Below, one piece after another: positions 13,801 to 16,800 of a DNA stretch of 39,541 nucleotides (the stretch's first letter is position 1; each line of letters begins with the position of its first letter). The DNA lies in the NCBI GenBank assembly GCA_040143965.1, contig JASJQH010006917.1, positions 1 to 39,541 on the forward strand, in the 5' to 3' direction. This DNA comes from Basidiobolus ranarum. Taxonomy: Eukaryota. The position numbers were made by a program, and so were the translations under genes. Under the pieces are notes generated by a model. That model was given only the letters and a program-made list of their open reading frames with translations, made no database searches and had not been told where the DNA came from.

Positions 13801-16800
13801 TTACAGCCCAAAGGAACGTCCGCGTCGAGAACGAGGTGTACCTGGAGTTCTAAATCCTGGAGTCGCCATTCTCGATCTGCGATAAAAATGGGTTAATTTA
13901 GGTTGATATGACTCGAATCTCGCTATATAGATACCTTGGGGTTTGAGCAACGCGTTGCTCTTCCTCTTGTTCCTTCTGCTTGAGGGCATCTTCCGTAGCT
14001 TTCTTGAGCTCATCCTCCATTGTTTTCAACTCTTCCCGATCTTGCTTACGTTTTTCCTATTCATTAGTATGTGTTAGTATGTTCAACAACAAAAGTAAGG
14101 ACTGACAGCAACAAAACCTTATGACTCCAATTGGATTCCTTTACACTGAAAAACATTGGACCTAGTTCAACGAGTTATAACATCATATGAAGAAACTATC
14201 CAATACAAAACAATTCCTTACCAAGTTCTGCTAACCAGTATGGATCAACAGAAGTTACGCATTGCATGTATTCTTTCGATGTCATGACAAGTTCATGATA
14301 AACAATATAGTCGGGTGTATCTGATGGTTAGAGTTAAGAATCTTTGGAGAAGTTGAAGTTGTTGTAATTAACATGCAGGTAATAATGAGCAAAAGGATAC
14401 ATCCAAGGCCGTAAAGAGCACTGGTAGGGTGCAGATGACAAGGCATGCCGGTTCTACAATTGACGTATTCACCAATACCTTTCAGTCTAGCTGCTTGATG
14501 GAAATAGGCAGAGCAAATGCATTTTCTGATTTTTTATCAAAATACATCAATAATCATCGATCTCCTATAAACATAGTATATTCTCTTACCTGACTACATC
14601 CCAGTTAGTACCACAGGATATATAAGGCATCTTTTCAGATTTCATGATATCCATTAGTTGTGATCGTACTTCACGTGCTTTACGCATTGCTTTGGAATGA
14701 ACAAAATGCTCTACACACCAATCCTCTCGATAGCTAGAATGATGAAAATAAATATAATGCTAGGGTGGCGGCCTCAATAAAGCTAAAACTTACTTATTGG
14801 CTTTCCATTGTGTGTAGACATGAAGAAGAGTAAGGTGATCACTCTCCGGTACAAAGAATTTCTCTCTGGCCGCATCACTTTCTTCCATTCTCTCTTTTGG
14901 ACGATAAAATACGGATGGTACTGAAAGCATCGACACGATAGTCTTGAACAGACGTTTAGTATACAAATATTTGGCCAAAAAGAAAATGATTCAAAAAAGG
15001 TACCAAAATTTCGGCTGTACAGTTTAGAGTTTCAGAAACGATTAACATTTTCGCAAGCGATGGATCTAGAGGAAACTCCACCATTTTTCTTCCAACGGAG
15101 GTCAATTCACCAGTATTATCTAGAGCGCTTAATACCCAAAGTTGATACATGGAATTCAAGATATTATCCTAATTCTTTGTATTAGTCTCGAATATGTACC
15201 CAAATCACACAAGTAGTCGTGGCTTACCTGTGGTGGTGGATCCATGAAATCAAAGTGAAGTAGATTTTTGACACCAAGAGATTTCAACAAGAGTACCACA
15301 TATGCCAAATTGGTTCTTTGAATTTCGGGAATCGTGTTGAAGAAAAGTTCGTGGCGGAAAGCTTGCTCAGTGTATAAACGATAGCATGAACTACAAATTA
15401 CATGTCCTTTAATATCAGGATGAAGTTTAACAAATTTTGAGTTCACACTTACCCCGGCCCAGTTCTCCCAGCACGACCAGATCTCTGGTTGGCATTAGCC
15501 TGACTGACAGGAGTGATTTGAAGTGCATCCATACCGATTTTAGGATTATAAACCTTCAGTTTACAATACCCTGAATCAACAACATACATAATACCATCTA
15601 CTGTCAAAGATGTTTCAGCAATATTAGTAGCAACAATGACTTTCCGAGCATTGTTAGCGGCTTTGTCGAAAATCTTGGCTTGAAGATCAGCAGGCATCTG
15701 AGAGTAAATTGGAAGAATAGCTAACGGAGGAGGATCATCCAGTTGTTCCAATCGCTCTAAAAGGTGTATGCTAAGTAAATAACTACTACGGACGATTAAG
15801 AGTGATTATAGATGAGCATACCTGCTAGTACTTGGCATGTAATTTCGATATCTTCTTGACCTGTCATGAAAACTAGTATATCTCCGGCAGGATGTGAAAG
15901 ATGAATAGACAGAATTTGCTTCACCGCACTGTCCACGTAGTCTTCACATGGAGTTTTACTAAACATGACATCAACAGGGAAAGTACGTCCGGGTATAGTG
16001 AAAATGGGAACATTACCAAAGAATGTAGAGAACTTTTCTGCATTCATGGTAGCAGATGTAACAATCAATTTCATATCACGGCGACGAGCAACGATTCGCT
16101 TTAAAAGTCCCATTAATACATCCGTCTGTAAGGACCGCTCGTGAGCTTCGTCCATGATAATGGCACTGTAGCGATCAAGATCTGACTCTCTCAAAGATTC
16201 TCGCATGAGAACACCATCAGTCATGTACTTGATAACCGTTTTTTCCGAAGTACAATCTTCGAAACGAATAGCGTAACCTACAAGATCACCTAATTTTGTC
16301 TGCAACAATATCCGATAAAATGGTAAGCTCGTGGAAATAAATTATCCAAAATAAAAATGAATTACCTGGACTTCTTCACTAACACGCTTTGCAACCGACA
16401 TGGCAGCGACACGACGAGGTTGAGTACAACCAATGACACCATAATTACTATAACCATCCTCATGCAGATATTGAGTTAGCTGCGTAGTTTTACCAGAGCC
16501 CGTTTCACCAACTACTACGACAACTGTGGCAAATTTGTAAATGTTAGTCTCCAATTCAACCAGTATAAGTATACCCTAAGTTGCCTACCTTGATTGTCTC
16601 TGATAATTTGAAGAAGCTGCTCTCTAACCGCAAAAGCTGGCAGGTATTCCCTTTGCTCTCTTAACGTTTTGGATCGAGCAAAAGTACTAACTGCATCCGT
16701 AGATGTTTTTAGATGGGTAGCAAATTGCGAATCCCCCCTTACATTTACTTCGTCTCCATCAGCATCATTAGATATATCTAGAGGCCGGTAAATGGGTTAT

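Follow-up and report, generated by a model that had tools for sequence, protein, structure and literature searches.

The closest described relatives of the intron reported here are the minor-spliceosome (U12-type) introns of the fungus Basidiobolus meristosporus. According to the accessible parts of two surveys, this species has 249 minor introns (0.554%), the highest density among fungi (Larue & Roy 2023, PMC10639083), or 237 of them (Olthof et al. 2024, PMC11347168). The first survey reports that neither Ascomycota nor Basidiomycota have convincing minor introns, and that most minor small nuclear RNAs (snRNAs) are absent from Basidiomycota; in the second, two copies of U11 and one of U6atac pass the Rfam threshold in B. 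meristosporus. The introns of that species are catalogued in both papers and in the Minor Intron Database (MIDB). Here, we analyzed a 39,541-nucleotide (nt) stretch of the B. ranarum genome (assembly GCA_040143965.1, contig JASJQH010006917.1, positions 1 to 39,541; hereafter ‘the window’), which carries an intron that we assign to the same class, in the same genus but in a species other than the catalogued one. This is intron 16 of the gene for the splicing helicase PRP16 (DHX38). Based on its splicing signals, we propose that intron 16 is very probably a genuine GT-AG U12-type intron that the minor spliceosome splices out constitutively, an account that does not require any special role in regulation.

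A 181-amino-acid exon translation from the window matched a protein of 1154 amino acids (P0003 in our searches) that is named in NCBI ‘Pre-mRNA-splicing factor ATP-dependent RNA helicase PRP16 [Basidiobolus ranarum]’, and the exons of this protein are those of the minus strand of the window. Its top relative of solved structure is human PRP16/DHX38 (5yzg_Z), which aligns over residues 7-1148 with 1467 bits, compared with 838 bits for DHX8 and 754 bits for DHX16. The Pfam domains DEAD, Helicase_C, HA2_N, HA2_C and OB_NTP_bind are all present, so that the full DEAH/HA2/OB architecture is represented. At the level of sequence comparison, these results support the identity of the gene as PRP16/DHX38 and not as one of the paralogues DHX8, DHX16 or DHX15. 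The guanine-plus-cytosine (G+C) content is 37-41% across the whole window. Spliced alignment of P0003 against the window placed the gene, intron 16 and its signals as follows.

13801..18516, minus strand: PRP16/DHX38 coding region, with the ATG at 18516 and the stop codon ending at 13801; 20 exons, 19 introns, 1154 amino acids
14401..14525, minus strand: exon 16, which ends with the first base of a tyrosine codon
14321..14400, minus strand: intron 16, 80 nt, phase 1, GT-AG, splitting the tyrosine codon at GLG-Y-TPD
14392..14400, minus strand: 5' splice site, GAT/GTATCCTTT, a 9/9 match to the extended U12 donor
14333..14340, minus strand: branch-point box TTCTTAAC, 7/8 against TCCTTAAC, with T in place of the first of two cytosines
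14327..14331, minus strand: CTAAC, a U2-type branch motif and rival branch site, with its A at 14328, 7 nt from the intron end
14321..14322, minus strand: AG of the 3' splice site
14222..14320, minus strand: exon 17, which begins with the last two bases of the tyrosine codon

The first-pass annotation of this DNA had placed an intron at 14321..14400 within the PRP16 gene, and had claimed for it an extended U12 donor and a U12-type branch site near the AG. The coordinates proved exact in the spliced alignment, in which the ends of the intron were set by the annotated protein and independently of any motif. The split codon is that of tyrosine 1043, which falls in the OB-fold (Pfam residues 999-1076), and splicing out the intron restores a protein that is contiguous in P0003 and its homologues. 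Both of the claimed signals were also recovered, the donor GTATCCTTT in all nine positions at the protein-fixed boundary and the branch box TTCTTAAC in seven of eight. The presumed branch A is the second A of the box (14334), and lies 13 nt from the last base of the intron; the usual distance between the branch A of a U12-type intron and the 3' splice site is about 10-15 nt. The extended U12 donor, [A/G]TATCCTT from +1, is nearly invariant, and its consensus is quoted in PMC2831892. In the accessible part of PMC11347168, two cytosines in the branch box are described as favouring recruitment of the minor spliceosome and an exonic AG at -2/-1 as disfavouring it, and the distance from the branch A to the 3' splice site is described as constrained in minor introns. 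The exon before intron 16 ends in AT, so there is no AG at -2/-1. Thus, the donor, the branch box, the 13-nt spacing and the exon end of intron 16 all agree with a U12-type intron.

We also calculated how often such signals would be expected by chance. On its own, the 8-mer GTATCCTT is unremarkable in frequency, with three copies in the window against 1.34 expected and at least three in 17 of 100 shuffles, and a loose composite of donor and branch box is uninformative (four observed, a simulated mean of 1.35, and at least one in 222 of 300 simulations). These two tests were replaced by a per-intron calculation at the protein-fixed boundaries. Under a matrix derived from the gene's 18 other introns, ATCCTTT at +3 to +9 has a probability of 1.8e-4; under the intron base composition, T[CT]CTTAAC placed so that its A lies 10-15 nt before the intron end has one of 3.6e-4. 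Jointly this gives 6.5e-8 per intron, which amounts to an expectation of about 0.003 over the 43,893 introns listed for B. meristosporus (Table S4). The signals matter because the motif sits on a boundary that is fixed by protein homology. The earlier claim that this is the only such intron in the window also stood, since no second qualifying site was found among 18 [AG]TATCCT sites (context viewed for 12) and 14 relaxed combinations of donor and branch box; 14400..14321 alone combines a perfect donor with flanking frames that are both open.

The window itself contains no snRNA, as an Rfam scan returned no match to any family at the gathering score or at E-values up to 1. The presence of minor-spliceosome machinery in the B. 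ranarum genome may be argued indirectly, from its congener B. meristosporus. Neither B. ranarum nor DHX38 nor PRP16 is mentioned in the accessible text and supplements of PMC10639083 and PMC11347168, the per-intron lists (FigShare, MIDB) aside, and an orthologous PRP16 intron of B. meristosporus may already be in those lists. In the literature searched, we found no paper that reports a minor intron in the DHX38 or PRP16 gene. With regard to a human minor intron at the site, the Ensembl identifier that we take to be that of DHX38 is absent from the accessible, possibly incomplete copy of the orthology table of PMC11347168, and the name ‘DHX38’ is absent from its accessible supplements; by this table and identifier, intron 16 does not belong to the set of minor introns conserved with human. 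Taken alone, intron 16 is one well-defined minor intron in a genus already rich in them, and it leaves the map of minor-spliceosome survival unchanged.

To compare the same position in other organisms, we used two kinds of material. In a metagenome scan with a 130-amino-acid C-terminal alignment, the best 80 of 439 relatives were kept, and all 80 loci were contiguous through the intron-16 site, in a ranking that favours uninterrupted matches and transcripts and is a weak guide to intron frequency. One of these loci, L010, is a genomic contig nearest to the PRP16 genes of Ambispora, Paraglomus, Geosiphon and Rhizophagus, and is thus glomeromycotan-like. Introns in L010 (250..340, about 490..598, and from 968) coincide in position with introns 13, 14 and 17 of B. 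ranarum PRP16, whereas the sites of introns 15 and 16 are uninterrupted.

The second search used the 83-amino-acid open frame of the window that runs from exon 16 into intron 16. Among the best 120 of 300 protein matches, 91 were contiguous through the site, three were unclear, and 26 broke right after GLG, with a cysteine followed by unrelated residues. A cysteine at this place is what the T of the split tyrosine codon followed by GT encodes, and hence marks a phase-1 intron at the same site. A second search focused on the junction gave 28 candidates and added one fragment that breaks after GLG (P0241), for a total of 27; it gave no new fragment reading Cys-Ile-Leu after GLG. The read-throughs of P0157, P0177, P0210 and P0230 are in frame and rejoin as ...D-TP[ST]YVIYHEL, as expected of an acceptor ending in AG that completes the tyrosine codon, and P0241 rejoins likewise as ...D-TADYVVYHEL. 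The 27 fragments fall into the following groups.

19 fragments: Agaricomycotina-like, with Fomitopsis, Phellopilus and Serendipita as the nearest named PRP16 proteins
1 fragment (P0130): zygomycete-like (B. ranarum 77.8%, Lichtheimia 77.0%)
1 fragment (P0241): Mucoromycota-like by our own reading, outside the comparison with named proteins made for the other fragments
3 fragments: apparently G+C-rich, as read from the read-through residues; taxon unassigned
3 fragments: apparently A+T-rich, as read from the read-through residues; taxon unassigned

The phase-1 intron at the same PRP16 site in these 27 fragments, 19 of them Agaricomycotina-like, appears to be new. Of the 91 contiguous fragments, 42 (P0131-P0136 and P0169 among them, and one named Mytilus) break after the lysine of MTxK with a valine (GTN), which indicates that they have a phase-0 intron slightly downstream of the Basidiobolus site, while the site itself is free of introns.

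The first-pass annotation had proposed that this position be compared among other organisms. The donors of the fragments were read from translated read-through and not from DNA, with taxon labels assigned by similarity. The residue after the cysteine is Lys in eight fragments, Glu in seven, Thr in five, Met in two, Ala in one, Asn in one and Ile in three. Lys, Glu, Met, Thr, Ala or Asn rules out ATC at +3 to +5 (24 fragments), and Cys-Ile-Cys rules out CTT at +6 to +8 (one fragment), so that a U12 donor is excluded in 25 of the 27, which by inference carry a major-type (U2) donor. Only Ile followed by Leu fits GTATCCTT. The near-identical P0151 and P0155 are therefore ambiguous, while their close relative P0200 reads Cys-Ile-Cys and is excluded. 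From these comparisons, the intron-16 site appears to be an old and widespread intron position in fungi, whose states would be U12 in Basidiobolus, U2 in mushroom-like fungi and loss in the glomeromycotan-like fungus.

P0151 and P0155 are the only other sequences in which the read-through would allow a GTATCCTT donor. P0155 (and P0151) shows an in-frame insertion between ...DIVR and KVIAS, which is the position of intron 15, and then reads Cys-Ile-Leu-Tyr at the intron-16 site.

Minor signals are far richer in information than major ones, and for this reason introns are held to switch type almost exclusively in the minor-to-major direction. The switch is easiest for GT-AG U12 introns, in which one C-to-G change at +5 may be enough, so that parallel conversions are cheap. 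Because of this accepted direction, and given that intron 16 is U12-type, we consider it fairly likely that Basidiobolus retains the ancestral U12 state, and that other lineages converted or lost the intron. Other fungi with an intron and U2 donors at the site would have arrived there most simply by conversion, and the rest would have lost the intron; the donors of the fragments fit U12-to-U2 conversion outside Basidiobolus. In known cases of such conversion (Burge et al. 1998, as cited; Lin et al. 2010, PMC2831892), the intron is likewise U12 in one lineage and U2 at the same codon and phase elsewhere, and the U2 lineages in the present case include Basidiomycota, which are without a minor spliceosome. 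However, the cases in PMC2831892 are metazoan, whereas the PRP16 case is fungal, and no outgroup U12 intron was found at its site to settle the direction.

The distribution of donors speaks against retention. Every other sampled lineage at the site, including P0130 and P0241, has a U2-type or ambiguous donor, and therefore plain parsimony favours a U2 ancestor. This leads to the alternative that the U12 state is derived, in that an ancestral U2 intron was converted in Basidiobolus, or a new intron was inserted at the same site, within a lineage-specific gain of minor introns. The U12 donor is seen only in Basidiobolus among the sampled lineages with an intron at the site, and the accessible part of PMC10639083 reconstructs a low ancestral density of minor introns for Zoopagomycota, in which B. 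meristosporus is nevertheless the densest of fungi. One conversion from U2 to U12 has also been documented, in Diptera. Even so, we regard a derived origin as unlikely, since it requires the direction that is held almost never to occur, whereas the U12 donor of a GT-AG intron can be lost cheaply and in parallel through the +5 C-to-G change. In addition, the taxa of the fragments are assigned by similarity alone and their donors come from read-through residues. If the U12 state were derived after all, intron 16 would be a traceable example of major-to-minor conversion, or of minor-intron gain, which is thought to be almost forbidden. PRP16 intron 16 thus offers a compact case for testing how often, and in which direction, introns switch type in fungi, and it also bears on whether the richness of Basidiobolus in minor introns was retained or gained.

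Removal of intron 16 would follow the generally known steps of the minor pathway. The U11/U12 di-snRNP (a double small nuclear ribonucleoprotein) would bind the donor GTATCCTTT and the box TTCTTAAC together, U6atac would take the place of U11 at the donor, branching would take place at A 14334, 13 nt from the AG, and removal of the intron would restore the tyrosine codon in the OB-fold. If intron 16 is retained in the transcript, the frame stays open for 39 codons past GLG and reaches a stop at 14282..14284 (minus strand), upstream of introns 17-19. The 112 C-terminal residues, and with them half of the OB-fold, would be missing from the product, and such a transcript may be subject to mRNA decay.

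This outcome raises the idea, which could hold in addition to constitutive removal by the minor spliceosome, that intron 16 is slow and rate-limiting, so that the supply of PRP16 and second-step capacity follow the activity of the minor spliceosome. The early stop upstream of three further introns would suit such a role. Minor introns can splice slowly and act as rate-limiting steps, according to reviews (PMC8329584, in its accessible part), and there is a precedent in the minor-spliceosome control of the splicing factor Srsf10 (Meinke et al. 2020, PMC7244321, likewise in its accessible part). Srsf10 is also a splicing-factor gene expressed through a minor intron, but its minor intron is autoregulated and has competing major and minor sites; neither is visible at PRP16 intron 16, and PRP16 is a core helicase and not an SR protein. 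The sequence gives no sign of regulation. No competing U2 site pair and no conserved element was found at intron 16 in the window, and a second copy of the intron (an introner or repeat origin) was found neither in the window nor in the 80 metagenome loci. Related fungi also manage without a U12 intron at this site, the glomeromycotan-like L010 having none and the others a U2-type one. Furthermore, a fungal study saw no connection in Rhizophagus between minor splicing and proliferation; in its authors' view, much of minor-intron evolution can be put down to neutral processes. For these reasons, we consider the coupling quite improbable. It should also be considered that any coupling would run in both directions. 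PRP16 should serve the minor spliceosome as well as the major one, and any coupling would therefore be circular and not one-way. An intron of this kind in a helicase believed to be used by both spliceosomes could close a feedback loop on minor splicing. If the coupling were true, the supply of a core second-step helicase would be tied to minor-spliceosome activity; nothing that we found supports it.

Finally, we compared intron 16 with the 18 other introns of the gene, which bears on whether the major spliceosome might remove it. At 80 nt, intron 16 is longer than the median of the gene (63 nt over all 19 introns); the others span 58-106 nt. The others have loose GTA-type donors and are preceded by an exonic AG in 12 of 18 cases. 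Under a home-made matrix derived from these 18 introns, the U2 donor score of intron 16 is low, at 2.5 bits, and those of the others span 1.6 to 9.9. Since intron 16 has C at +5 and +6 and its exon ends in AT, U1 pairing with such a donor would reach little beyond GTA. The commonest branch motif in the other introns is CTAAC, and YTRAY motifs in their last 45 nt lie mostly 11-39 nt from the end; the exceptions are TTGAT at 8 nt in intron 2 and CTAAT at 7 nt in intron 18, each of which has a farther motif too. One part of the earlier description did not survive this comparison. Intron 16 had been said to lack a clear polypyrimidine tract, yet its pyrimidine content at -20 to -4 is 0.71, joint second highest among the 19 introns (range 0.29-0.76), and is not distinctive in the direction claimed.

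Several of these observations tell against assigning intron 16 to the minor spliceosome. Its U2 score is not the lowest in the gene, as introns 5 and 13 score 2.0 and 1.6 bits, and the U2 donor of B. ranarum is loose, with GTA followed by almost anything. Of the two cytosines, the branch box keeps just the second one, a mild point against the assignment in light of the accessible part of PMC11347168, and intron 16 could rank as ‘minor-like’ in the six-class scheme of the same paper. There, too, the single U12 and U4atac candidates of B. meristosporus are putative, passing the statistical threshold of cmsearch and falling below that of Rfam. Splicing by the major spliceosome, with intron 16 being U2-type or ‘minor-like/hybrid’, its U12 look residual or accidental and branching at CTAAC, could draw on all of the donor tolerance, the missing cytosine, the pyrimidine-rich 3' region, the frequency of CTAAC in this gene and the U2-type introns at the same site in other fungi, but it is very unlikely in view of the C at +5 and +6 and the AT exon end, the position of the CTAAC A just 7 nt from the AG, a chance of about 6e-8 per intron for the full donor with a correctly spaced branch box, and a genus that keeps many minor introns (PMC10639083 and PMC11347168, in their accessible parts).

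Another intron of the gene also has an unusual donor. Intron 13 (14943..15003, minus strand) begins TTG/GTACCTTTT and has the lowest U2 donor score of the gene, and its position is common to L010.

The other genes of the window identified by Pfam are given below; no minor-spliceosome component was found among them.

5948-6355, minus strand: ATP_bind_1
about 10935-11534, minus strand: mitochondrial carrier
18935-19279, minus strand: Arf family
20955-21958, plus strand: DUF1295
24891-30377, minus strand: MOR2/PAG1 cell-morphogenesis protein
33777-35665, plus strand: metallo-beta-lactamase-fold protein, which we take to be tRNase Z/ELAC2-like
36548-37718, plus strand: nucleoplasmin-like FKBP
38914 to the window end, plus strand: nucleosome assembly protein (NAP)

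A 308-amino-acid open frame at 339..1265 (minus strand) has no Pfam match, and shows weak tblastn matches (22-27% identity) to the N-terminus of PRP16, which is charged and rich in Arg, Asp and Ser. This frame probably represents another gene for a low-complexity RS/RD-type protein.

Four U12 look-alikes elsewhere in the window were examined and rejected. The one at 34065 (plus strand) lies inside an open exon of the metallo-beta-lactamase-fold gene, that at 17201 (plus strand) is antisense to PRP16, and that at 36521 (plus strand) is upstream of the first U2-type intron of the FKBP gene. The fourth, at 10178 (minus strand), lies within a 60-nt GT-AG intron of a small-GTPase gene that is presumably RABL6-like, and its AT-AC reading meets a stop. 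This intron (10130..10189, minus strand) has the donor GTTTCG and holds ATATCCTTAAC, which resembles a U12 donor run together with a U12 branch box. When it is read as GT-AG, ...CKEIQ is followed by GSKFEPDY..., and the intron is taken to be U2-type, with a motif that would be there by chance or as a relic. In addition, ATATCCTTT occurs at 38552..38560 (plus strand), upstream of the NAP gene start and likely in its 5' leader or promoter, and is followed downstream by TCGTTAAC, which lies just 5-7 nt ahead of the nearest AC.

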